Of a DNA stretch of 64,000 nt, positions 219 to 34,279 are shown piece after piece. This DNA comes from Dictyostelium discoideum. Taxonomy: Eukaryota. The translations under genes were made by a program, and so were the position numbers. Where the stretch lies: positions 3,168,001-3,232,000 of the forward strand of contig CM000152.2 in assembly GCA_000004695.1 (NCBI GenBank), written 5' to 3'. Below the pieces are notes generated by a model. It saw only the letters and a program-made list of their open reading frames with translations, had not been told where the DNA came from and did not search any database. Position 1 is the stretch's first letter; each line of letters starts with the position of its first letter.

Positions 219-3153
219 TAATAATAATTACTATAATGAAAATAATAATCAACAACAACTACAACAAAACTATAGCAACAATAATTACAACAATGAATAT
301 ATAAATAACTTTAACAACAATGATAATAGTTACAACAATAATAATAATAATAATAATAATAATAGTAACTTCAACAACTACAATAATAATAATAATGGTT
401 ATGACAATAGTTATAGTAATAGTAATAATAATAATTATTATGATAACAGTAATAACAACTCTAAAAATGATAATCAATATAACCAACAACAGCAATATTA
501 TCAAGAAGAAGAACAACAACAACAACAACATGAAGAATTTGAAAAAGAAATTGAACAAAAAGAACAAGATTCAAGTCCAATTAATGTTAATAGAAATCCA
601 AATAATTCAGTTATGATAAAGATTGGTGAAGTTGAAGTACCAGAGGATATTTATAATCAAAAAGTTGAAAAATGGAGAAATGATTTTAATAGTATTTTTA
701 GAAATCTTGAAACATTGGAGATTGATTATACAAAAGCAACATTTGGTTTACCAAAAGATACAACAGTTAGAAGTATTTTTTGGAGAATTGCATTAGGTAC
801 CTTATCAAAAGATCCAACCACTTGGGTTGAAAGAACAAATTCAAGTAGAAAGAAATATGAAACATTTAAAAAGAATTATATTATTAATCCAAGAAATTCA
901 AAAGATCAAGATGCAGATCTTCAACAACAACAGCAACAACAACAACAACAACAAAGAAAACCAGTATCATTAATTGATGACCCATTATCACAAAGTGAGG
1001 ATAGTTTATGGAATCAATTTTTTGATAATGAAAATGCACAAAGAGAGATTAGTCATGACATTTCAAGAACGTATCCAGGTTTAGGATTTTTCGAAAGATT
1101 AGATATTCAAGATATAATGATTAGAATATTATTTATATTTAGTAAACAATATCCAAAGATTAAGTATCTTCAAGGTATGAATGAAATATTGGCACCAATT
1201 CTATACTCTGTCTACAACGATTCACATTGGTTCAATAATAGAGATGTATTCTCAAAGAAAAACTATGATAAAAAGAATAAACAATATGAACATTTCGATT
1301 TTGTATTTGATCAACAATATCAACAAGATTATTATCCAGATGGTCCAATTCAGTATCCAACCAATAGTAATAATTTTAATGGTGCTGGTAGCAGTGGCAG
1401 TGGTGGCAGTGTCTCAAGAAAGGATGGAGGTATTGGTGCTTTTCTTAGAGATCCACAATATTTCGAACATGATTCTTATTTCATTTTCGAATCATTGATG
1501 ACAATCGTTGGCAAGTGGTTTACTTCACCACCATCATCACCACAGCCACCACCAAGAGTTCAAGGCCAATTTAAGAAGCTTTATGATCTCTCTGAGCGTG
1601 ACGCCTCTGACCAAGCTGTTAATATTGTGGTTGTAGATCAATGTCTTAGAATGTTTGAAGATTTGAAATTTATTGAACCACAACTTTACAGTTACTTAAA
1701 ACAAGATCTCGGAATTGAACCTCATCTCTATTCACTTCGTTGGATTAGAATCATTTTGGCTCAAGTATTTCCATTGGATTCTCTATTGATACTTTGGGAT
1801 TCAATCTTTAAAGAATCGGTAACAGAATTCTTACCATACATCTGTTTGACAATGTTAATTATGATCAAAGATCAAATCATCGAAAAGGATTATTCCGAAT
1901 GTTTACAAGTTCTCTTTCATTATCCTGTCACTCAAGATATGCCAATGTTATTAAATACAGCTTATTCAGTCCGTGAAAAAATTCAAATGGCAAAACAACA
2001 ATACAATATTCCAATTAGTACTCCTGTATCAACACCTTTACCAACTTCTTTATCAAGACGTTCAATTAAAGCTTATCCTGTATCAACTTCTTCAACTATA
2101 GTAAATCAATCAACTACTACTAATAGTAGTAGTAGTAGTACTACTACTTCAACAACTTCTGCCAATAGAGGTTTATCACATTCTTCACAATCATATAGAT
2201 CAAGTAGTGGTAGTGGTAGTGGTAGTATTAGTAATCAAAATAAAGGAAATGGTCAATCTGGTATATTTTCATCATTCACATCAACATTTAAACAAATTAT
2301 TAATGATTTAAATGAATATAATGAAGAATTCCAATTAGCAAAAGAGAATGAACAATTAAAACAACAAAAATCAAAATTACAAAAAGAAGTTGATACATTA
2401 AAAGAGACTCAAACTCATGTCATTAGTAGATTAGAAAGAATTTTATTCTCATTTGTTGATTTTAAACAAAAACATATTCATGATCAAGATAACTTTGAAT
2501 CTGTTGATGCAATGGAAAAAGAAGTAACTTCAATCTTGAATGAAGTTTTAAATAGTCAAACAACAATTGCAAATTTAAATAACAGTAAAAATAGATTGCC
2601 AAATAAAAGTGTACAACAATCAACTATTTCACAACAATCAACTACTCCACAACAATCAATCACTCAACAAACATCTTCTCCAAATATAGTATTAAAACAA
2701 CAACAACCAATCACTGTTATTTCACAACAACAACAATCACAACAACAACAATCTCTACAACAAGAACAACAGCAATCTACCCAACAACAACAATCTACAC
2801 AACAAGAACAGCAATCTACACAACAAGAACAACAGCAATCTACACAACCACAACAATCACAACAAAATAACGATAATAGTCCATTCCAACAATATAATAA
2901 CGATAATAGACAAGAAAAAATATCATTAGAAGATGAAGTCTTTTTTGATAATCAATTTGTATCAGTTCAATCAACAAATAAAGAATTTCAATTGAAAACA
3001 TTATCACTTCCAAATGTAGAGATTCATGAAGATGATTTGGTTGAAGTTAAAACTCATGATAGTACAGTCGATGAAGATGAAGATGGTAATCCAATCACTG
3101 AACAATATAATTACAAGCAACAATTAGAAGCAAGATGGGGTTTTAATAAATAA
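1..3153 (+). CDS. TBC/RabGAP domain protein. 5' partial: frame 1 is open from nt 1 through the poly-Asn region into the 613..3153 ORF, with no intron detected in the window.
   Basis: Frame 1 has no stop from nt 1 to the TAA at 3151-3153. The translation carries the TBC arginine-finger region (REISHDISRTYPG) and glutamine-finger region (YLQGMNEILAPILY). The Asn/Gln-rich N- and C-terminal low-complexity tracts are typical Dictyostelium coding sequence. The ORF-track entries 2..304 and 320..616 are off-frame readings of the AAT repeats. Confidence 0.85.
141..235 (+). repeat. (AAT)n microsatellite inside coding sequence (poly-Asn tract of the TBC protein).
   Basis: About 32 uninterrupted AAT units. 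Confidence 0.95.
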
Positions 3154-3358
3154 AATAAAATAATATGACATAAAATAAAAATAATTTGAAAGAAGAAAAA
3201 AAAAAAAAAAAAATTTACTCATTGGATTATTTTTAATTATTTCTATTTATCCTTAATTTTATAATTATTTCTATTTATCTTTAATTTTTTTTTTTTTTTT
3301 ATTTTTTTTTTTTATACAGCTTATAAATTTTTTTTCTTTTTTTTTTTTCTTTTCTAAT

Positions 3359-4577
3359 TTATTCACTTAAGAATTGAAGAGCAGTAGTTTTTTCAGCAAC
3401 TAATTCTTCAGTTGTTAGATTAATTAAATTTTTACTCAAATCATCCATTTGTAAACCTTGAACGATAGTGTATTTACCATTTGCACATTTAACTGGGAAA
3501 GAAAAGATAAGACCTTCTGGAACACCATAGGAACCATCGGAATAAACACCCATTGAAACGTATTCACCTTCAGCAGTACCAAGTACCCAATCATGCATAT
3601 GATCAGTGATTGCTTTTGCAGCGGAAGCGGCAGAAGATAATTTTCTGGCGGCAATAACTGCAGCACCTCTTTTTTGAACGGTTGAAATGAATTCACCTTG
3701 TAACCATTTTTCATCTTTGATTGCAGTACTGATTGGAGTTTTACCAGTGCTAAGATTAATATAACCACAACGATAATCTGGATATTGAGTTGATGAATGG
3801 TTGCCCCAGATAATTACATTGTGGACATCCTTGACATTTACACCTGCTTTCAAGGCTATTTGAGATTTGGCACGATTTTGATCGAGACGAGTGAGACATG
3901 TAAAGTTCTCCTTTGGAATGCCATTGGCTGATACTTGTGCAATGAGTGCATTGGTATTGGCTGGATTACCAACTACCAATACTTTAACATTCTTATTTGC
4001 ATGTTCGGCGAGTGCTTTACCTTGAACTTTGAAGATTGCTGCGTTTGCTTTCAAAAGATCAGCTCTTTCCATACCTTCTCTACGTGGCATAGCACCAACT
4101 AAAATTGCATAATGTACACCAGTGAATGCTTCTTTAACATCGGCAGTTATAACTGTATCAGCGATCAATGGATATGCACCATCTTGAATCTCCATTACAA
4201 TACCTTTCAATGAGTCTACCATTTGTGGAATATCTAAAAGATGTAATTTAATACGTTGATCTAAACCAAACATATCACCTTTACATACATTGAAAATTAA
4301 TGAATATGCAATTTGACCTGCTGCACCAGTAATTAATACATTAATAACTTCATTGCTCTATTGTATTTTATTTTATTTTTTTATTTTATTTTATTTTTTT
4401 TTAATTTATATAATAATATAAATAATATTATATTATTTAAATAATATAAAATAAAATATTAATATCGGAAATTAAATATCGGACATATAATTAAAATAAT
4501 AAATAAAATGAAATTAAATTAAATTAAAAAATAAAATGAAAAATAAAATAATTAAAATAAAATAAAGTATTTACCAT
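3359..4577 (-). CDS. Cytosolic-type NAD malate dehydrogenase. Exons: complement(4575..4577) [ATG only], complement(3359..4357). Intron 4358..4574 (GTAAAT...CAATAG).
   Basis: The translation of 4357..3359 begins [20 protein letters not shown] (a Rossmann GAAGQIAY motif) and continues with MDH1-like sequence to ...ALQFLSE. There is no in-frame ATG upstream of the in-frame TAG that doubles as the acceptor AG. An ATG followed immediately by GTAAAT lies 217 nt upstream. It gives M+SNEV..., which matches the canonical MSEPIRVLVTGAAGQ start of cytosolic MDH. The 3-nt first exon is inferred (confidence about 0.4). The main exon is secure. Confidence 0.8.
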
Positions 4578-5382
4578 TTTATATATTTAATTATATTATA
4601 TTATATTATTTTTTTTATTTGTTTGGAAAAATTATGAAGAAGAAAAAAAAAAAAAAATTGTGAACAACACATGACCTGTTTTTTTTTTTTATTTTTTTAT
4701 TTTTTTTTTTTCAATTATTTTTTTTTAATTTTAATTTAATTTTTATTTTATTGTGCGAACCCACCAGCCCCAATTTTACTTTGATATTTTGGAATAAAAA
4801 AAAAAAAAAAAAAAAAAAGGTTGGAAAAATGTGAATTCATTGAAGATCTTTGAACACAATTGCAAACGAAAAAAATTTTATTATAATCCAAAAAAAAATG
4901 ATTTTTCATTTTTTTGGAAATTATTTATTTAAAAAAAAAAAGATATTTTTATCTTTTTTTTATCTTTTTTTTAGAACTAATAAATAAATAAAAAGTTTAT
5001 TAACCAACGATAATAAAAACAAATTCTTTTTTTTTTTTTATTTTTTTTTTTTATTTATAAACTATTTATAATTAAAAAAAAAAATAAAAATAAAAATATC
5101 CACTAAAACATTTTCAAAAAATTTAAATAAATAAAAATAATAAATAAATAAATAAATAAATTATAAAATTTTTAGGTATATCAATTTTAAAATTATAGTT
5201 AGAACCAAAAAAAAAAAAAAAAAAAAAATGAAAATTTAGTCACAAAAAAAAAAAAAAATAAAAATAAAAAAAAAAAACCAACTGATTTCCTTCGTTCGTT
5301 TTTTTTTTTTTTTTTTTTGCTTTATTTTTTTTTTTTTATTAATTTTTTTTAAACAAAAACTATATTATTAATCTTAAAAAAT

Positions 5383-6731
5383 ATGGGTGAAATACAAAGA
5401 GGTGGATTTAGAGGAGGAAGAGGTGGAGGATTTAGAGGCGGTAGAGGTGGAAGTGGTGGTGGTTTAGATAGAGGTGGAAGAGGTGGTTTCAGAGGTGGTA
5501 GAGGTGGAGGTGGTTCAGATAGAGGTGGAAGAGGTGGTTTTAGAGGCGGTAGAGGTGGAAGTGGTGGTGGTTCAGATAGAGGTGGTAGAGGTGGCTTCAG
5601 AGGTGGATTTAGAGGTGGTAGAGGTGGGGGTGGTTCAGATAGAGGAGGTAGAGGTGGATTTAGAAATGGTGGTAGAGATGGATTTAGAAATGGTGGAAAA
5701 GATAATGAAGATAGTTTCAAAAAAAGTGAAGAAAATAACAACAACCAAGCAACAGCTATTAAAAAAACAAATAATAAAAGATCAGCTGATGATTTAGATG
5801 ATAATATCGATACAACTTGGAAGAAACAAAAGTTTGAAGTTGACCCAAATAATGAATTTGAAAACACAAGTGATATTGAAACTGAAGGGGGTGATGATAA
5901 AAAAGCCACTAAAAAACAACCAAAACCACCAAGAAAAACACCAAAACAAAAGAATTTAGGTGATTTAGATCCAAGTATTGAATTTATGTCAAAAGAGAAT
6001 CAAGCAATCATGTTTACAAGAAAGAATGCAGAATTTTTAAAATTAAATACATCAAATGCTACCTCATTCAAAGAATCACATTTTATTGAACCAAAGGCAG
6101 ATATTGAAGATTTATCAAATTTCATTAAATCAATTCATCCATTATTACATACATATCCTGATAGAAAGAAATATAAAGTTCAAAATGGTGCACCACTAGT
6201 TATAATTGCAACTTGTTCTGCAACTAGAGCAATTGGTATTTCAAAGTAAGATTTTTTTTTTTTTTTTTTTATTTATTTATTTTATTTATTATGTATATAA
6301 ATAAATAATAGTTTTATTAACTTTTTTTATTTTTTATTTATTTATTTAGAGTTTTAAGTGAATTTAATATATTTACAAAAGTTGGATTATATTTTGCAAA
6401 ACATAAAAAGATTGAAGAACATACAGAAGTATTAAATAATTATCCAGTTAGAATTATTGTTGGTACACCAAATAGATTATTAAAATTAGTTGAGAATGGT
6501 TCATTAAAACTTAAAGGTTCAGTATTAGTTCAAGGTGATAAAAAACAACAAGCTCAAAATGCACTCATTGAAACTGATGAGGAAACTCGTTATTTAATCA
6601 TTGATAAAAGTTTTAAAACCTTAAAAGGTGAAGATTTATTCAGAATCAGTGGTACTGATTTATTTGAATTTTTCGATAAATCTTGTAAAGAGTTAGTTTT
6701 ATCTGGTAAAATGAAAGTATCAATAGTTTAA
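5383..6731 (+). CDS. RGG/FRGG-box (GAR-domain) protein with a CMSS1/Cms1-like C-terminal domain. Exons: 5383..6245, 6350..6731. Intron has a GTAAGA donor at 6246 and an acceptor ...TTATTTAG at 6349.
   Basis: The N-terminus has 12 (F)RGGRGG repeats. The C-terminal part (KYKVQNGAPLVIIATCSATRAIGISK | VLSEFNIFTKVGLYFAKHKKIEE...VRIIVGTPNRLLKLVENGSLKL) resembles the helicase-like core of human CMSS1 (LMLIICSSAVRALE...LFAKHIKVQ...VGTPGRIKELV). The intron phase is consistent (phase 2). The second exon is an open 381-nt frame sitting in 80% AT DNA. Confidence 0.65.
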
Positions 6732-7235
6732 CCAATTTTAAAAAAAATAAAATAAAAAATAAAAATAAAAAAAATAAAAATAAAAGGAACATTTGGTGTA
6801 TGTGTTTTTCCCACTTTTTATTAAATTTTCCACTTTTTTAAATAATTTAAAAATAAAAAAAAAAAAAAAAAAAAAAAACAATTTTACAAACACCAAGCAC
6901 ACTAACACACTTCATACAACCATATTGTTTTGTTTACCAAAGTGTTTTTATTATAATTTAAAAAAAAATTCAAAATGATTTAATAGTTGGAATTAGCGCG
7001 TTTATTCAATTTGTCGGTTAAAGTGAAAATTTTCCCTCCCAACTTTTTTTTTTATTTTTATTTTTTTTTATTGCCGACTAGATTTTTTTTTTTTTTATAA
7101 ATTAAAAAAAAAAATAAAAATCTTTTTTTTTTAAAACATTTATTAAAACTTATTGTGTACATATATATATATATATATAAAAAAGTTAATTAGTTAATTA
7201 ATTAATTTATTATCAATTAAAAAAATAAAATAAAA

Positions 7236-7548
7236 ATGGGTCTTGATATTCAAACAGAAATCGATAAAATTGTAATTGAAAAGGTTAAACCAGAAGTTGA
7301 ATACTATGACGTTATGGGTGGGTCACATAGATGGGAAGTCAAAGTGCACGACCATGGTAAAGTTGCATTAGTCGATACTATGCCAAGATTAGCACCAGTT
7401 GGTCAAACCGCCGATTTCTCAATTTGTCAAGCAGCAAGAGTGTCATATGGTGCCGGTACTAAAAAAGTCACTGAAGATAAAGGTTTAATTCGTTATCTTT
7501 ATAGACATCAACATACTTGTAAGTATATAAATAAATAAATAAATAATG

Positions 7549-26119: not shown

Positions 26120-26593
26120 ATGAGATCAATCCTTATTTTATTAAGTTTATTATTAACTATTGCATTTGCATCAGCAAGTTTCCCATACCAATGTGGTCCA
26201 TATAGTTGTCAATTTGGTCAAGTTTGTAGAATTGATAATGGTGTTTCTAATTGTATTCCAATTAATGATTGCCATGAAGTTTCATTATCAACAAAAGTAG
26301 TTGGTACTTGGGTAGATGGTTCGCGTGGTAATAAAAGATTCACTCAATATGATATTACAATCACAAATAATTTAAATACAAATATTAAACAAATTTACAT
26401 TGCCACTGATTACACTTTAAGATTAAGAGATCATTCAAATAACTCAATTTGGAATGTTAACCTTTTACCAAATGGTATCCTCACTCTTCCATCATACCAA
26501 CCATCAATCAATGCTCATGCTTCCTTTACTTTTGGACTCATTATTGAAGGTACTCAACCTGCAAATTTAAATGTTTTATCAGTTTCTTTCTAA
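26120..26593 (+). CDS. Small secreted protein, copy 1 of 3. Signal peptide, then a 6-Cys knot, then a CBM2/CBM49-like carbohydrate-binding beta-sandwich.
   Basis: 157 aa. The N-terminus reads MRSILILLSLLLTIAFASA. The Cys knot is QCGPYSCQFGQVCRIDNGVSNCIPINDC. The C-terminal domain has the CBM2a-like spacing W.DG....F..Y.ITITN...I..IYI.....L......IWNV....NG.L.LP........A.FTFG.I.EG..P.NL. Nearly identical copies lie at 28112 and 30023. Confidence 0.6.
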   Translation: MRSILILLSLLLTIAFASASFPYQCGPYSCQFGQVCRIDNGVSNCIPINDCHEVSLSTKVVGTWVDGSRGNKRFTQYDITITNNLNTNIKQIYIATDYTLRLRDHSNNSIWNVNLLPNGILTLPSYQPSINAHASFTFGLIIEGTQPANLNVLSVSF

Positions 26594-27243
26594 ACCATAT
26601 ATCCATTTTAAATTAATCAAAAAAATACCATAATAAATAATTTATTATTTATTTTATTTATTTTATTTTATTCTTATTTTATTTAATTTTATTTTGTTTT
26701 ATTTTTATTTTTTTTTTTTTTTATTTTATTTTATTTTATTTTATTTTTTTTTTACAATAATGATACTAATATTAAAAATTAATAAAAAAAATCTTAAATT
26801 ATCTTGTGTCATATGAATGATATCATTGGTGCAAGGCAAAAGTGAAGTAACTTTTCAAAAGTTGACGAAGGGTGATTTTTTTATTTGGAGGATTTTTTCT
26901 AAAAAAAAAAAAAAAAATAAAAGAATAAAATAAAAAAAATAAAAAAAAAAATATTTTTAGAATTTTTTAAAAAAAAAGTCAACCTGGGATCAAGATATTT
27001 TTAATTCAAATAATTGAAATGATAAAAATTCTGGTAGGCAAAAGCAATCACAAATATCTAAAAATTATTTTTAAAAAAAAAAATAAAAAAAAAAAAAATG
27101 GTTTTTTTTTTTAATATTTAAACCCATTATTTTTATTTTTTAATTTTTATTACATCATCATTCATTTCAAATAAAATAATTTTTTTTAACATTACCTCTT
27201 TTCAGTATTATTCAAATATCCTTTAAATCAACCAAATAACAAA

Positions 27244-27319
27244 ATGAAATTAAACTTTATTGGAGGCCAAAATCGTCAAGGACCAACTACCTCAAGTAAC
27301 AAACCAAGTGGAAGATCAG
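27244..27319 (+). other. Conserved orphan mini-exon (ATG...GGQNRQGPTTSSNKPSGRS|GTAAGA), copy 1. Putative first exon of an unidentified or alternative transcript.
   Basis: An ATG-initiated 25-codon frame ends exactly at a canonical GTAAGA donor. The same peptide and donor context recur in the other two repeat units. No downstream partner exon was found in-frame for copies 1 and 2. Confidence 0.3.
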
Positions 27320-28111
27320 GTAAGATATCTCAACTCTCTCTATCTCTCTCTCTCTCTCTAAAACAATTAATAAATAATAAACCATTACTGACATTTATAA
27401 AAATTAAAAAAAAAAAAAACAAATAAAAAAAAAAATTAAAAAAGTTTTCTTTGCATAAATAGTATAAAACCCTTACGCGCGATTATTTTTAATTATTAAA
27501 TTAATAATAAAAAGTTAAATGAACATTTTAGAATATATTAAACCCTAATTTGTTATTCATTCAATATTTTTCAATAATCATTAATTATTTAAATAATTAA
27601 GTTTTTATTATTAGTTTAATAATTTCCAAATATTTTTTATATTTCAAAAAATAAAAAAAATAAAAAAAAAAAAATAAAAAAAAATAAATTAATTAAATCG
27701 AAAAACATATAATGTTTTTTTTTTTTTTTTTGCTGGAAAAATAAAAAAAATTAAAATTTGTTTTGGGTGGGATCTATTTTTTTTTTTTAAATAACAATTA
27801 TTTGATACTAGCTTTTATTATTCAAAAAAAAAAAAAAAATGTAAGGAGGTAATACATCTTGAGATTGTACCATCTATTATTTAAAAAAAAGAAATTTTAT
27901 ATTATTAATTACTTGATTTCTAAATTAATAATAAATGAATATTTGGTGTCATAGGTATTGAAGGAAAATATTAAAAAAAAAATAATAATAAAAAAAAAGG
28001 TATTTAAAGGTTTAAATAATTATTAATTCTAAATAATTAAACATTCAAATATTAATTTTTATTAAAGCTATAAAAACAAGGTATTAAAAAAAAAAAAGAA
28101 ATCTTATTAAA

Positions 28112-28585
28112 ATGAGATCAATCCTTATTTTATTAAGTTTATTATTAACAATTGCATTTGCTTCAGCAAGTTTCCCATACCAATGTGGTCCATATAGTTG
28201 TCAATTTGGTCAAGTTTGTAGAATTGATAATGGTGTTTGTAATTGTATTCCAATTAATGATTGCCATGAAGTTTCATTATCAACAAAAGTAGTTGGTACT
28301 TGGGTAGATGGTTCACGTGGTAATAAAAGATTCACTCAATATGATATTACAATCACAAATAATTTAAATACAAATATTAAACAAATTTACATTGCCACTG
28401 ATTACACCTTAAGATTAAGAGATCATTCAAATACTTCAATTTGGAATGTTAACCTTTTACCAAATGGTATCCTCACTCTTCCATCATACCAACCATCAAT
28501 CAATGCTCATGCTTCTTTTACATTTGGTTTCATTCTTGAAGGTACTCAACCTGCAAATTTAAATGTTTTATCAGTATCTTTCTAA
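28112..28585 (+). CDS. Small secreted Cys-knot + CBM2/CBM49-like protein, copy 2 of 3.
   Basis: It is 157/157 aa alignable with copy 1, with a handful of substitutions (S43C, N108T, L141F, I143L). The flanking non-coding DNA is also conserved. Confidence 0.6.
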   Translation: MRSILILLSLLLTIAFASASFPYQCGPYSCQFGQVCRIDNGVCNCIPINDCHEVSLSTKVVGTWVDGSRGNKRFTQYDITITNNLNTNIKQIYIATDYTLRLRDHSNTSIWNVNLLPNGILTLPSYQPSINAHASFTFGFILEGTQPANLNVLSVSF

Positions 28586-29150
28586 ACACCTATCATTTTA
28601 AGTTAATCAAAAAAACACCATAATAAATAATTTATTATTTATTTTATTTTATTTTTTTTAATTTTATTTAGTTTTATTTTATTTTATTTTAAAACGTTGT
28701 AATAATTTAAAAAACATTATTTAAATCGTTATTTTTTTTCTATTTTTTTTTTTTGAAATGTATTAATATTTAAAATTAATAAAAAAAATCTCAATTTATC
28801 TTGTGTCATATGAATGATATCATTGGCACAAGGGAAAAGTAAAGTAACTTTTAAAAATATCAGGTGATTTTTATTTATTTTTTTATTTGGATTTTTGACA
28901 ACCTGGGATCAAGATATTTTTAATTCAAATAATTGAAATGATAATTTGGGTTGGTAAAAGCAATCACAAATATCTAAAAATTATCTAAAAAAATAAAAAA
29001 AATAAAATTTTTTTTTTTTTTTTAATATTTAAACCCCATTATTTTTTTTTAGTTTTTATTACATCATCATTCATTTCAATAAAATAATTATTTTTAACAT
29101 TACCTCTTTTTTTAATATTCAATAATCCTTTAAATCTGCCAATTAACAAA

Positions 29151-29226
29151 ATGAGAACAAGCTGGACAGGTGGCCAAAATCGTCAAGGACCAACTACCTC
29201 AAGTAACAAACCAAGCGGAAGATCAA
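29151..29226 (+). other. Conserved orphan mini-exon (MRTSWTGGQNRQGPTTSSNKPSGRS|GTAAGA), copy 2.
   Basis: See 27244..27319. The N-terminal 6 codons differ. The GGQNRQGPTTSSNKPSGRS block and the donor are conserved. Confidence 0.3.
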
Positions 29227-30022
29227 GTAAGATATTATATTACCCCTCCAACAAATTATTAATTAAACAATCATTACTAACATTTTTAAAAATAAAAAAT
29301 TAAAATAAAATAAAATAAAAAAGTTTTCTTTGCATAAATAGTATAAAACCCTTAAGCGCAATTATTTTTAATTACTAAATTAATAATAAAAAGTTAAATG
29401 AACATTTTAGAATATATTAAACTCTAATTTGTTATTCATTCAATATTTTTTAATAATCATTAATTAATTTTTAATGAGTATTTTAATAATTTAAAATGTT
29501 TTTTATATTTCAAAAATATAATAAAAAAATAAAAATAATAAAATAATAAAATCTAAATACATTTGTAATGTTTTTTTTATTATTTCTGGAAAAAATAAAA
29601 AATGAATAAAATAAATAAAATTTGTTTTGGGTGGGTTCTATTTTTTTTAAAACACCAATTATTTTGATATTAGCTTTAACATCTATTATATTAATTTTTT
29701 AAAATATTCTGGAAAAAAATGTAAAGAGGTAATAGATCTTAAGATAGTACCATCTATTATTTAATAAATGGTAAAATGGAAACTTTTTATTATTAATTAC
29801 TTGATTTCTAAATTAATAATAAATGAATATTTGGTGTCACGGGTGTTAAAGAAAATATTAAAAAAAAAAAACAAAAAAAAAAAAAAAATAATTTAAAAAA
29901 AAAAAAAAGGTATTTAAAGTTTTTAAATTATTAATTCTAAATAATTAAATATCAATAAAAATATTTATTAAAGCTATAAAAACAGGTATTAAAAAAAAAA
30001 TTTTATTTAAATAATTATTAAA

Positions 30023-30496
30023 ATGAGATCAATTCTTATTTTATTAAGTTTATTATTATCAATTGCATTTGCATCAGCAAGTTTCCCATACCAATGTGGT
30101 CCACATAGTTGTCAATTTGGTCAAGTTTGTAGAATTGATAATGGTGTTTGTAATTGTATTCCAATTAATGATTGCCATGAGGTTTCATTATCAACAAAAG
30201 TAGTTGGTACTTGGGTAGATGGTTCGCGTGGTAATAAAAGATTCACTCAATATGATATTACAATCACAAATAATTTAAATACAAATATTAAACAAATTTA
30301 CATTGCCACTGATTACACTTTAAGATTAAGAGATCATTCAAATAACTCAATTTGGAATGTTAACCTTTTACCAAATGGTATCCTCACTCTTCCATCATAC
30401 CAACCATCAATCAATGCTCATGCTTCCTTTACTTTTGGACTCATTATTGAAGGTACTCAACCTGCAAATTTAAATGTTTTATCAGTTTCTTTCTAA
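30023..30496 (+). CDS. Small secreted Cys-knot + CBM2/CBM49-like protein, copy 3 of 3.
   Basis: It is near-identical to copies 1 and 2 (T13S, Y28H). Its downstream flank has diverged from that of the other two copies. Confidence 0.6.
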   Translation: MRSILILLSLLLSIAFASASFPYQCGPHSCQFGQVCRIDNGVCNCIPINDCHEVSLSTKVVGTWVDGSRGNKRFTQYDITITNNLNTNIKQIYIATDYTLRLRDHSNNSIWNVNLLPNGILTLPSYQPSINAHASFTFGLIIEGTQPANLNVLSVSF

Positions 30497-30891
30497 ACCA
30501 TCAAAACAAAAAAAAAAAAAATACCATAATAAATAATTTATTATTTATTTCATTTCATTTTATTTTATTTTTAATTTATTTTTTATTTCATTTCATTTTA
30601 TTTTATTTTATTTTAATATATTTTATTTTATTTTATTTTATTATATATTATTTTTTTTTGAATTTGTTTTTAGAAATGTTTATTTAAATTTATAAATTTT
30701 TTTTTAAGGGAAAAAAAAAATAAAAAGATATTTTAAATCTATGAAAACAAAAAAAAATCAGGCATATCAGTTTTTGATTGCGCAATATTTTCAAAAAAAA
30801 AAAAAATTAATAGAAATTATTTGGAAAAAAGTGGTTTTATTTTTCTTTTTTTTCCACAAATCCAAAAATATCTGGGTCGATCATATTTATA

Positions 30892-30923
<32 letters not shown>

Positions 30924-31015
30924 AATAATTTTATTTTTTTTTTTGGGTTTTAAATTTTTTTTTTTTATTTTATTTTTTTTCTTTTTTATACTTTTCAAAA
31001 ATTAGTTAATATAAA

Positions 31016-31127
31016 ATGTTCCCAAATAGTAACGGCCCAAACAAGATGAAAGCACTTGTTGCCCCATCGAATTCATCTACCACATCCAAAACAAATAACA
31101 ACAATTTACCCCCAAATGGAAGATCAA
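31016..31127 (+). other. Diverged orphan mini-exon (MFPNSNGPNKMKALVAPSNSSTTSKTNNNNLPPNGRS|GTGAGT), copy 3.
   Basis: The DNA has diverged but still keeps ATG...GGAAGATCAAG|GT. Phase 1 would splice in frame to the TGTCAG| acceptor at 32273-32274 inside codon 3 of the 32265 gene (intron about 1.15 kb). This is speculative. Confidence 0.25.
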
Positions 31128-31504
31128 GTGAGTTTTTTTTTTTTTTTTTTCCTCCAAACACACAAACACTAATTGTATAAAATTAATAAAAACTAATATT
31201 AATCATAAAATTTTTTTTATTTTTTTATTTTATTTTCTTCAGTTTTTGGTCCATAAAACAGTATAGTGAAACCGGATTACCTATTTACATTTAATAAATA
31301 AAGATGTAAATCAAAATGTAAAATTAAATTTATATATTTTTTTTATTTTTATTTTTATTTTTTATTTTTTTTTTATTTTTATTTTTTAAAATAGAAAAAG
31401 AAAAATTCTGTTTTTGGATGAAATACAACTTAAAGGTATATCATGACAATGATGGGAATTTTGTTGAAACTTAATTCTTCAACTGTTGACGGTATTGAAT
31501 TTTT

Positions 31505-31622
31505 GGTTAAATAATAATGATTTTTTTGTTGATTGAATTTGCTGAATTTTATTTTAAATAATTAAGTTTTTTAAATAAAATTCAGCAAATTCCACCAAGT
31601 GAAAAATCATAATTATTTAACC
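31505..31622. repeat. Long inverted repeat / hairpin. The perfect 20-bp arms GAATTTGCTGAATTTTATTT (31535..31554) and AAATAAAATTCAGCAAATTC (31572..31591) extend to imperfect arms of about 50 bp.
   Basis: The reverse complement of the right arm matches the left arm for over 45 of about 55 positions. The loop is about 17 nt of A/T. Confidence 0.85.
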
Positions 31623-31735
31623 AAAAAAATCAATGATCAAGTTTTTAATTTTTAATATGGATTTAATATATAAAAATTGAGCACCCAAAAATACAAAAAA
31701 ATCATATAAAATATAAAAAAAATGAATGTAACCAT

Positions 31736-32264: not shown

Positions 32265-34279
32265 ATGTCAGATAAAGAAATCGAAGATAATGAATTTGAA
32301 AATGAAGAAGAAGAAGTAGAGGAAGAAGAAGAAGAAGAAGAAGAAAATGCTATATTTACAAATGAAGAAGAAGAAGAGGAAAAAAAAGATATAATGGATG
32401 AAATTAAAGATAGATTTAAAGAAGCAAATTTTGATGAATTTGATGAAACAGAGATTATTAATAATGGTAAAGAATTAATTAAACAATCAAATATATTATT
32501 AGAAGAGATTAAAGAATTGGAAAGTGGTAAAGAGTTATATCAACATAGTAAACAATTGGTTGATACGGTATTAAAGAAACAAGAAGCCAAAGAGTTGATG
32601 GAAAAAGGGTTGAATATATTGACAGAGGTAAAACAAAATCAAGAGGCACAAGCATTGATTGGTGAATGTAAGAACTTTATCGACCTATTCAGTAAGGAGG
32701 ATAAAGTTCAATCAATCATTCAACAGGGTAAAGAGCTATTGGAGGGAATGAAGGACGAAAACGGCGAATTCAATCTCACCTCGACTAAAGCCTCGTTAAA
32801 TAGAGAAGCCATTGAATCCCTATTCGCCCAAGGTTCCACCATCTTTAAGGAGTTTAATGAGAATGATCAAAATTCACTCTACTTGGATAAAATGAAAAAG
32901 TTATTCTTTGATTTAAAAGAAGCAGAATCAACTCGTATCACTTTATTAAATGGTATTGCTGAGGGTAAGAAATGGGTTGAATCATTAAAAGAAAAAGATC
33001 CACAAATTAAAAGTTTAGTTGATGAAGGTGAACAAATCTTTAATCAAATAGCATCTAATCCTGAAGTATCATCACTCTTTAATGATAGTAAAAAAGTTTT
33101 TGAAAATCTTTTAACTTCTGAAACAAAATTAGATCCATCTTCACCTGAAGTATGTTAAAAAATTATAATAATAATAATTATAATTATAATTATAATTATT
33201 ATAATAATTCTAATTTTTTTTTTTTTTTTTTTGAATTATATTATAAAGTTTAAAGTATTAATTGAAAGAGGTGAAAAAATTGCAGGTGATTTAAAAGAAC
33301 AATTAAAATCAAATAAATTAGTTGGTGAAGTAACTCAAAGAGAAGATGTTAAAATATTTTTAGAAAAAGGTAATAAATTCATTTCTGAAGTTAAATCAAA
33401 AGAACAATTAATTGATTTCTTAAAACAAAATAAAGAGTGTGTATTTTTTTTTTAAAAAAAAAAAAAAATGTTTTTTTTTTAATAATACTAATATTATTTA
33501 TTTTTATTAAATTTAGTTTTATAAAAGAAATTAAAAATACAATTGTACCATTTATTACAGATCAATTATTAAAAGTACAAATACCAACAGTTAATGGTAT
33601 TACAAAAGGATTTAAATATGAATTATCAAATTTAGTATTTGCAGGTTTAAATATACCACCAGAGGGAGTCGATGTTGAATTTAGTGAAACCAATAGTATA
33701 ACGGCATCAGTATCAGGGTTCACTGCACAATTAAAGAATTTCTCATGGTCATATAAACAAGAGGGCTTCCCATATTTAAAGGATCAAGGTCTTGCTAGTG
33801 CAAATTGTCAAAAGGGTTTCACATCATTGACTTTTGATATTGAAACTAATAAAGAAACCAATACACCAGAGATTAAAATTACAAATATCGTTTTTAAAAT
33901 TGAGAATTTGGAAGTATTGGTTCAAGAATCTGGTAAAGTTAAATGGCTTTACAATTATTTGATTTCAAAGTTTAGTGAATCAATTAAAGAAGTTGTTGAA
34001 AATAAAATTAAAGGTACAATCACTGGTCATATCAATACTTTATCAACTAAAATTAATCAAATCGTTGGTCAATATTGGAATAAATTAATTGATAAAATTA
34101 AATCTCCTTCTTCAAATTCAACTTTAAATTCACCATCACAATCTGAAAATAAAATTACTGAATTAAATAATGAAAATAATGAAAATAATAATAATAATAA
34201 TAATAATGATGAAGATAGTGAAAAAAAAGAATGTAAAAACAAATCTGATGAAAAAGAAGAAATTAAAGTTGTATCATAA
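32265..34279 (+). CDS. Acidic coiled-coil N-terminal region followed by a BPI/LBP/CETP-like lipid-binding (BPI-fold) domain. Exons: 32265..33149, 33249..33436, 33517..34279.
   Basis: Exon 1 ends ...SSPE|GTATGT. Exon 2 (acceptor ATAAAG at 33248) carries FKVLIERGEKIAGDLKEQLK...FLKQNK and ends with a GTGTGT donor in phase 2. Exon 3 (acceptor ATTTAG at 33516) starts D-FIKEIKNTIVPFITDQLLKVQIPTVNGITKGFKYELSNLVFAGLNIP, a BPI N-terminal domain pattern, and runs through a helical ...IKGTITGHINTLSTKINQIV. All phases are consistent. The ORF track lists three separate ORFs. Confidence 0.6.

Follow-up and report, generated by a model that had tools for sequence, protein, structure and literature searches.

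Micro-proteins encoded by small open reading frames (ORFs) are known from other eukaryotes, e.g. the products of tarsal-less/pri in Drosophila and the micropeptides of vertebrates. Closer at hand, the AX4 reference of Dictyostelium discoideum lists three hypothetical proteins, DDB_G0280387 (Q54VL0, 60 amino acids (aa)), DDB_G0280389 (Q54VK8, 50 aa), and DDB_G0280279 (model P0003, a spliced protein of 54 aa), whose loci lie in the 64-kb stretch of D. discoideum DNA studied here (64,000 nucleotides (nt) of chromosome 3, contig CM000152.2, assembly GCA_000004695.1, positions 3,168,001 to 3,232,000 of the forward strand; hereafter the window). In this extremely AT-rich window (GC content 14-32%), the region at 26.1-31.3 kb is a tandem array of three units, each made of a single-exon CBM49 gene (staB-like) followed by a short ATG-initiated frame that ends at a splice donor. 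The initial annotation of the window regarded these mini-exons as orphans, without acceptor or second exon in copies 1 and 2 and perhaps spliced to a neighboring gene in copy 3. We propose, with a probability of roughly 0.65, that every mini-exon forms the first part of an independent gene, complete with two exons, and that the corresponding peptides are probably encoded. Judging from the sequences, these mini-genes most likely constitute a small, fast-evolving, tandemly amplifying family found only in the D. discoideum species complex. As the loci are already known in AX4, where the existing models are probably wrong, the result is a modest annotation correction.

Sequence inspection and splice parsing confirmed that the three ATG-initiated frames end at GT donors after positions 27319, 29226, and 31127, all of them in phase 1, and the peptides first quoted for them were right; the junction consensus, given earlier as (A)G before the GT, is in fact GGAAGATCA[AG]/GT, followed by [AG]AG (slashes mark exon boundaries). 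The second exons were found close by. In copies 1 and 2, acceptors of the form AAAAAG/TTTTCTTTGCATAA sit 125 and 97 nt downstream, and copy 3 is no orphan either, since an acceptor TTCTTCAG/TTTTTGGTCCATAA at 31243 gives IFGP and a stop. The predicted spliced frames read MKLNFIGGQNRQGPTTSSNKPSGRS-VFFA-stop, MRTSWTGGQNRQGPTTSSNKPSGRS-IFFA-stop, and MFPNSNGPNKMKALVAPSNSSTTSKTNNNNLPPNGRS-IFGP-stop, and are built from the following features (UTR, untranslated region).

Copy 1 (DDB_G0280387):
27147-27170, + strand: upstream block TTATTACATCATCATTCATTTCAA, ~75-97 nt before the ATG, identical in six type-1/2 genes of four assemblies
27244-27319, + strand: exon 1 coding part, MKLNFIGGQNRQGPTTSSNKPSGRS plus one base (G), phase 1; donor TCAG/GTAAGA
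27320-27444, + strand: intron of 125 nt with GTAAGA donor, branch point TACTGAC at 27386-27392, and acceptor AAAAAG
27445-27458, + strand: exon 2 coding part, TT TTC TTT GCA TAA, completing V-F-F-A; stop at 27456-27458
27459-27590, + strand: conserved 3'UTR block with a near-invariant stretch at 27482-27535, a poly(A)-like signal AATAATAAAAAG at 27503-27514, and a putative transcript end

Copy 2 (DDB_G0280389):
29056-29079, + strand: upstream block, identical to the block TTATTACATCATCATTCATTTCAA of copy 1 and conserved in the same way
29151-29226, + strand: exon 1 coding part, MRTSWTGGQNRQGPTTSSNKPSGRS plus one base (A), phase 1; donor TCAA/GTAAGA
29227-29323, + strand: intron of 97 nt with GTAAGA donor, branch point TACTAAC at 29275-29281, and acceptor AAAAAG
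29324-29337, + strand: exon 2 coding part, completing I-F-F-A; stop at 29335-29337
29338-29470, + strand: conserved 3'UTR block with a near-invariant core at 29361-29414

Copy 3 (DDB_G0280279):
31016-31127, + strand: exon 1 coding part, MFPNSNGPNKMKALVAPSNSSTTSKTNNNNLPPNGRS plus one base (A), phase 1; donor TCAA/GTGAGT
31128-31242, + strand: intron of 115 nt with GTGAGT donor followed by poly-T, candidate branch point AACTAAT at 31191-31197, and acceptor TTTTATTTTCTTCAG
31243-31256, + strand: exon 2 coding part, TT TTT GGT CCA TAA, completing I-F-G-P; stop at 31254-31256
31257-31330, + strand: 3'UTR with AATAAA at 31293-31298 within the conserved stretch TTTAATAAATAAAGATGTAAATCAAAATGTAAAATTAAAT

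Were these genes expressed as their anatomy suggests, transcription would begin roughly 80-100 nt 5' of the AAAATG start codon, a short canonical GT-AG intron of 125, 97, or 115 nt would be removed, an 11-nt coding remnant in exon 2 would contribute four residues before the TAA stop, and a conserved 3'UTR of about 70-130 nt with an AATAAA-type signal would presumably lead to the transcript end. The upstream block shared by copies 1 and 2 is probably a core promoter, a transcription start, or part of the 5'UTR. The intron lengths fit both the species norm (mean of 146 nt; PMC3188802) and the 99- and 80-nt introns of a neighboring gene for a BPI-like protein. A (CT)8 microsatellite at 27344-27359, confined to the intron of copy 1, explains most of the extra length of that intron.

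The three mini-exons stand out as GC islands, with a GC content of 0.38-0.46 versus 0.10-0.21 around them (0.38 versus 0.14-0.19 in the flanks and intron for copy 1). Copies 1 and 2 lie in units that share ~87% identity along the whole intergenic stretch, and their 3'UTR blocks are 96% identical and near-invariant over four assemblies. For copy 3, AT-rich noise drowned a permissive blastn comparison of unit 3 with the other two units, and each segment was instead aligned globally and scored against shuffled sequences of matched composition. Similarity rose above chance in exon 1 (z about 3) and in exon 2 with the 3' block (z 2.3-2.7) only; it did not do so in the intron or in the flanks, whether upstream or distal 3' (z from -1.0 to 1.5). 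The homology between exon 2 of copy 3 (TTTTTGGTCCATAAAACAGTATA) and that of copies 1 and 2 (TTTTCTTTGCATAAATAGTATA) is recognizable.

We searched both strands of the window with a signature comprising an ATG-initiated ORF of at least 15 codons, a phase-1 GT[AG]AG[AT] donor, an intron of 50-230 nt, and a tail of the form [VILM][FY][FHLG][ASP]-stop. Exactly three sites were retrieved, i.e. the three mini-genes, and none was found in two control loci, the BPI-like locus of P. violaceum and one CBM49 locus of D. purpureum, where the gene order around the gene looked up is not conserved and no family member was seen. The pattern formed by the three mini-genes exceeds chance.

Further members were retrieved from loci reached via CBM49 homologs in D. 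citrinum (locus L006) and D. cf. discoideum (L007), and via a profile match in assembly GCA_054859205.1 (L009). All three loci are syntenic with the window and contribute 11 related mini-genes, bringing the family to 14 members, of which 3 are in the window, 8 in D. cf. discoideum, 2 in D. citrinum, and 1 in GCA_054859205.1. Orthologs of copy 1 (type 1) are present in L007 and L009, and those of copy 2 (type 2) and of copy 3 (type 3) in both L007 and L006. In L007, five extra diverged mini-genes (positions 2487-7520) follow each other in tandem with a spacing of ~1.2-1.5 kb and without interleaved CBM49 genes, between a peptidase-C39-like gene and the first CBM49 gene; the equivalent interval measures only ~600 nt in D. 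discoideum, indicating that copy number shifts quickly between sibling species.

The gene structure is retained throughout the family. All 14 members have the AAAATG start context, a phase-1 GTAAGA or GTGAGT donor, an intron of 80-125 nt with an ACT[GA]A[CT] branch point and an AG acceptor, and an exon 2 of exactly three whole codons followed by TAA or TGA; the C-terminal tails are VFFA, IFFA, VFFS, IFFS, IFHA, IYLA, or IFGP. The phase-1 frame is the only one that is open with an ATG in every member, while in the remaining two frames the upstream ORF varies freely and the length of exon 2 ranges over 8-48 and 5-51 codons. Differences in exon-1 length between orthologs (+6, +3, +3/+3, and others) are without exception multiples of three, whereas intron lengths vary freely (125, 88, 96, 97, 87, and 83 nt). 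Intron interiors have diverged, and conservation is confined to the two splice sites and the branch point (ACT[GA]AC); in copy 3, AACTAATATTAATCAT and the pyrimidine tract are shared with the D. cf. discoideum ortholog and the remaining intron differs, while TTTTTGGTCCATAA is identical among all three type-3 orthologs. The GC content of exon 1 remains at 0.33-0.47 across the family versus 0.12-0.20 in the introns. The N-termini are type-specific, MKLNFIGG for type 1 and MR[TI]SW[TI]GG for type 2, and each is retained across species, which indicates that the difference between copies 1 and 2 in this region (9 of 18 nt) is old and maintained.

These observations bear on the suggestion of the initial annotation that the mini-exons are real first exons under purifying selection. 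Start, frame, donor, and phase are indeed retained in the diverged copy 3 and in the 11 members from three related assemblies, and to this extent the suggestion is upheld. It does not extend to copies 1 versus 2, because units that are ~87% identical throughout would show conserved mini-exons without any selection on them; copy 3 and the other species are the informative comparisons.

The predicted products are MKLNFIGGQNRQGPTTSSNKPSGRSVFFA (29 aa), MRTSWTGGQNRQGPTTSSNKPSGRSIFFA (29 aa), and MFPNSNGPNKMKALVAPSNSSTTSKTNNNNLPPNGRSIFGP (41 aa). They are basic, of low complexity, and devoid of acidic residues, with segments such as QGPTTSSNKPSGR and the ...SVFFA C-terminus. Conservation among them is seen in a G-P motif at the center and in the end of the chain, G-[RK]-S-[VI]-F-x-x. 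We infer that this C-terminal end is probably the functional part, in which case a disordered basic peptide would carry a short linear motif for binding or modification. We considered G-R-S as a site for protein kinase A (RRxS) and rejected it, since the arginine directly precedes the serine (position -1), whereas such a site would have it at -2 or -3.

Expression of the loci is supported indirectly. DDB_G0280387, DDB_G0280389, and DDB_G0280279 all appear in lists of differentially expressed genes based on RNA-seq (Rosengarten et al. 2015, PMC4403905, Additional file 7), suggesting that the mini-gene loci are transcribed. According to a tentative assignment of the columns in these lists, DDB_G0280387 and DDB_G0280389 are in the suspension "DOWN" columns at early hours, and DDB_G0280387 is additionally in the "UP" column at 6 h. 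The gene identifiers are mentioned neither in the main texts of the literature searched nor in the supplements of PMC6198379.

Several results weigh against the two-exon genes or their translation. No junction reads, cDNA, or peptide that would show splicing or translation directly were found; an exact look-up of the spliced peptides in a collection of 15 billion proteins gave no match, and scans of metagenomes and metatranscriptomes for the exon-exon junction and the exon-1 core returned 0 matches. The mini-gene proteins are also absent from the supplements of a life-cycle proteome (PMC12821622), where a basic peptide of 29 aa is easily missed. A recent D. discoideum assembly is annotated with no gene at the mini-gene positions, and the AX4 models differ from the two-exon models proposed here. 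Outside the species complex no homolog was found, nor was a known domain, so that any function is a guess. Between orthologs, the ratio of nonsynonymous to synonymous differences per site (pN/pS) is 0.29-1.03 on ~20 synonymous sites per pair, which indicates a weak or patchy constraint on the amino acids; the patches are G-G-Q-N-R-Q-G-P, N-G-P-N-K-M-K, and G-[RK]-S-[VI]-F, with weak constraint outside them. Finally, the 3'UTR stretch ATTATTTTTAATTA[TC]TAAATTAATAATAAAAAGTTAAATGAACATTTTAGAATA (27482-27535 and 29361-29414) is almost invariant across species and thereby better conserved than the ORF, leaving room for a role at the RNA or DNA level; the only role that we can propose for it is a possible one in 3'-end formation or as poly(A) signal.

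Pfam contained no family matching any of five family members at E <= 1, and profile searches of 5.8 and 1.84 billion proteins retrieved only the AX4 models, one fused automatic model of an ortholog, and three weak matches to unrelated, repeat-rich proteins. A search of Rfam gave no match at the gathering score, with only chance-level matches on an unrelated palindrome at E <= 1, and a tRNA scan returned nothing relevant.

The conservation of the 3'UTR block, the best-conserved part of the mini-genes, raises the question of whether they produce spliced non-coding RNAs, the ORF not being translated into a functional peptide and the 3' block or transcription itself being what matters. The pN/pS of about 1 in some pairs and the lack of a detected peptide or of any protein homology would agree with this explanation. 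Against it, all 14 members keep the AAAATG and an ORF that is open in one frame only, indels in exon 1 preserve the frame, and neither the tail of four residues nor the stop changes position. Moreover, RNAalifold applied to exon 2 and the 3'UTR of 13 members predicted zero pairs and hence no consensus fold, and Rfam offers no match, even at E <= 1. We therefore consider non-coding RNAs unlikely, and two-exon coding genes remain our preferred explanation.

The mini-genes could also be without function, i.e. relics that hitch-hiked with a recent tandem duplication and whose ORF and splice-like signals are due to shared ancestry alone. The whole-length identity of units 1 and 2 is compatible with this idea, being uninformative on selection, and AT-rich flanks inflate identities. 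Nevertheless, copy 3 and the five extra L007 copies, whose flanks and introns can no longer be aligned, retain the start, frame, donor, branch point, acceptor, tail, and stop; a GC-rich island has been maintained where the non-coding DNA of the window has only 10-20% GC; and the loci are listed as regulated transcripts. Such an absence of function seems very unlikely to us.

Nearly the same holds for the possibility that the AX4 annotation is right as deposited, with copies 1 and 2 as unspliced ORFs of 60 and 50 aa and copy 3 as a spliced protein ending in ...GRSSFWSIKQYSETGLPIYI, which we regard as quite improbable. In its favor, these are the deposited models. DDB_G0280387 and DDB_G0280389 match exactly the unspliced ORFs of the window, which read into the intron, and P0003 shares exon 1 with our copy 3 model. 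That P0003 employs the same intron is independent gene-caller support for the two-exon structure. However, the read-through tails of the first two models lie in unconserved, indel-rich, AT-rich intron sequence, and the intron lengths differ between species by non-multiples of three. The frame of P0003, for its part, requires the junction TCAAG^TTTTTGG, which corresponds to a TG-AG or GT-CA intron and is one base off GT-AG, so either the DDB_G0280279 model has a non-canonical junction or the reference had one additional G. The junction (31124-31132) reads identically in a further assembly of D. discoideum, and the extra G is seen in neither of two sibling species. Read in the P0003 frame, the second exons of the three type-3 orthologs are 16, 11, and 17 codons long and show radical changes, whereas the IFGP-stop tail is invariant among them. 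With an invariant tail in the canonical frame, a variable AX4 frame, and no extra G, the canonical models are favored.

Further gene-caller support comes from an automatic model of the L009 ortholog (P0025), which begins at the same ATG and takes the same first intron as the proposed mini-gene. This model of 135 aa (L009 10001-10953) fuses the mini-gene to an unrelated downstream ORF by way of a micro-exon of 8 nt and a GC-AG intron by which the stop codon is bypassed; the fusion is probably an annotation artifact.

The least successful explanation takes the mini-exons as alternative first exons or promoters of the genes that follow them on the same strand, copy 3 being joined to codon 3 of DDB_G0280281 and copies 1 and 2 to the next CBM49 gene. 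These neighbors are:

26120-26593, + strand: CBM49 gene, single exon, with an N-terminal signal peptide
28112-28585, + strand: CBM49 gene, single exon, with an N-terminal signal peptide
30023-30496, + strand: CBM49 gene, single exon, with an N-terminal signal peptide
32265-34279, + strand: BPI-like gene DDB_G0280281, three exons, 611 aa, introns of 99 and 80 nt

The idea had some appeal, as the mini-genes, the CBM49 genes, and the BPI-like gene are all on one strand and an AG in phase 1 with copy 3 does exist (at 32270-32271, so that the exon would begin at 32272 and not at 32273-32274 as first reported), but it is extremely improbable: conserved acceptors followed by a stop are nearer in all three copies (97-125 nt downstream, the one of copy 3 being pyrimidine-rich and only 115 nt from the donor), whereas the join to the BPI-like gene would skip the latter in favor of an AG preceded by an A-rich run, would require an intron of 1,144 nt compared with a mean of 146 nt, and would span an opposite-strand FNIP-repeat gene located between mini-gene 3 and the BPI-like gene in D. 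citrinum; metatranscriptome mRNAs of a BPI-like ortholog have a plain leader and begin 35-48 nt ahead of its ATG; the CBM49 genes consist of one exon each and begin with a signal peptide, and no acceptor was identified there for copies 1 and 2; the five extra L007 mini-genes have no CBM49 or BPI-like gene directly downstream; and the expression lists show the mini-genes changing at an early stage of starvation, in contrast to staB-type genes, which are said to be late stalk genes.

The organization of the CBM49 genes thus probably leaves the alternative-promoter idea unsupported, and the completeness of the mini-genes makes superfluous both this idea and the other one put forward initially, namely remnants of a gene whose 3' exons were lost.

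As for the CBM49 genes themselves, they are separated from the mini-gene of their unit by 519-650 nt, and a protein nearly identical to their product is labeled "STAB protein" by one database source. A 157-aa CBM49 protein of the window is also encoded on a contig of assembly GCA_054883475.1, which matches the window at 99.6% identity over 20 kb. Their coding sequences are roughly 91-98% identical pairwise at the DNA level, copy 1 being nearer to copy 3 than to copy 2, whereas unit 3 has flanks that have become unalignable with those of units 1 and 2. This discrepancy suggests gene conversion or strong selection on the coding sequences.

Two blocks of ~90 nt that are not AT-rich are located between the CBM49 stop and the mini-gene ATG, at 26788-26880 and 26979-27070 in unit 1, with equivalents at about 28780-28870 and 28895-28990 in unit 2. 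They resemble each other and are about as strongly conserved over four assemblies as the mini-exon. The blocks contain the palindromes TCATATGA, TGATATCA, and TTCAA-N4-TTGAA, together with an invariant inverted repeat AAAAGT-N6-ACTTTT whose spacer is variable. Their indels have lengths not divisible by three, which points to a probable cis-regulatory role and not to coding. A near-perfect palindrome occupies 31500-31627, in the interval that separates mini-gene 3 from the BPI-like gene, with 64-nt arms that are 86% complementary and no spacer; its Rfam matches are at chance level only (models of microRNA-precursor hairpins, E 0.25-0.58, far below the gathering score).

What the peptides might do is a matter on which we can only offer suggestions. 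One would be a family of translated bioactive micropeptides (29-44 aa) restricted to the D. discoideum complex, whose C-terminus serves as a recognition, processing, or modification motif and which have a regulatory or signaling role in early starvation; we hold this to be very doubtful. That the peptides are perhaps precursors of small peptide signals whose genes are still unidentified, such as SDF-1, would be pure speculation.

In summary, three hypothetical-protein models of the D. discoideum reference probably need correction, to two-exon genes of 29, 29, and 41 aa in place of 60, 50, and an off-frame 54 aa, and the family is now defined by a simple sequence signature that can be used to find more members. 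If the peptides are made, they represent a lineage-specific, rapidly amplifying micro-protein family in a model organism where little work has been done on genes of this kind; otherwise, the loci exemplify short spliced transcripts that are conserved. In either case the finding is one of ordinary gene structure, and not evidence for unusual splicing or for hidden N-termini of neighboring genes.

Compared with known systems, the three genes occupy the same loci as DDB_G0280387, DDB_G0280389, and DDB_G0280279 of AX4, with the difference that two of the AX4 models ignore the intron, the third uses a non-conserved frame, and the family went unrecognized. The mini-genes resemble alternative first exons in that an ATG exon runs to a consensus donor upstream of a same-strand gene with an in-phase AG, but they differ in that the ORF ends four residues on, past a conserved acceptor located closer to the donor. 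With tarsal-less/pri and the vertebrate micropeptides they share very short ORFs (29-44 codons here), restriction to a lineage, a susceptibility to mis-annotation, and conservation concentrated in a short motif. In contrast to those systems, with which they have no sequence similarity, the mini-genes are monocistronic, carry an intron 11 nt before the stop, have products that are as yet putative, and are arranged in tandem arrays whose copy number differs between sibling species.

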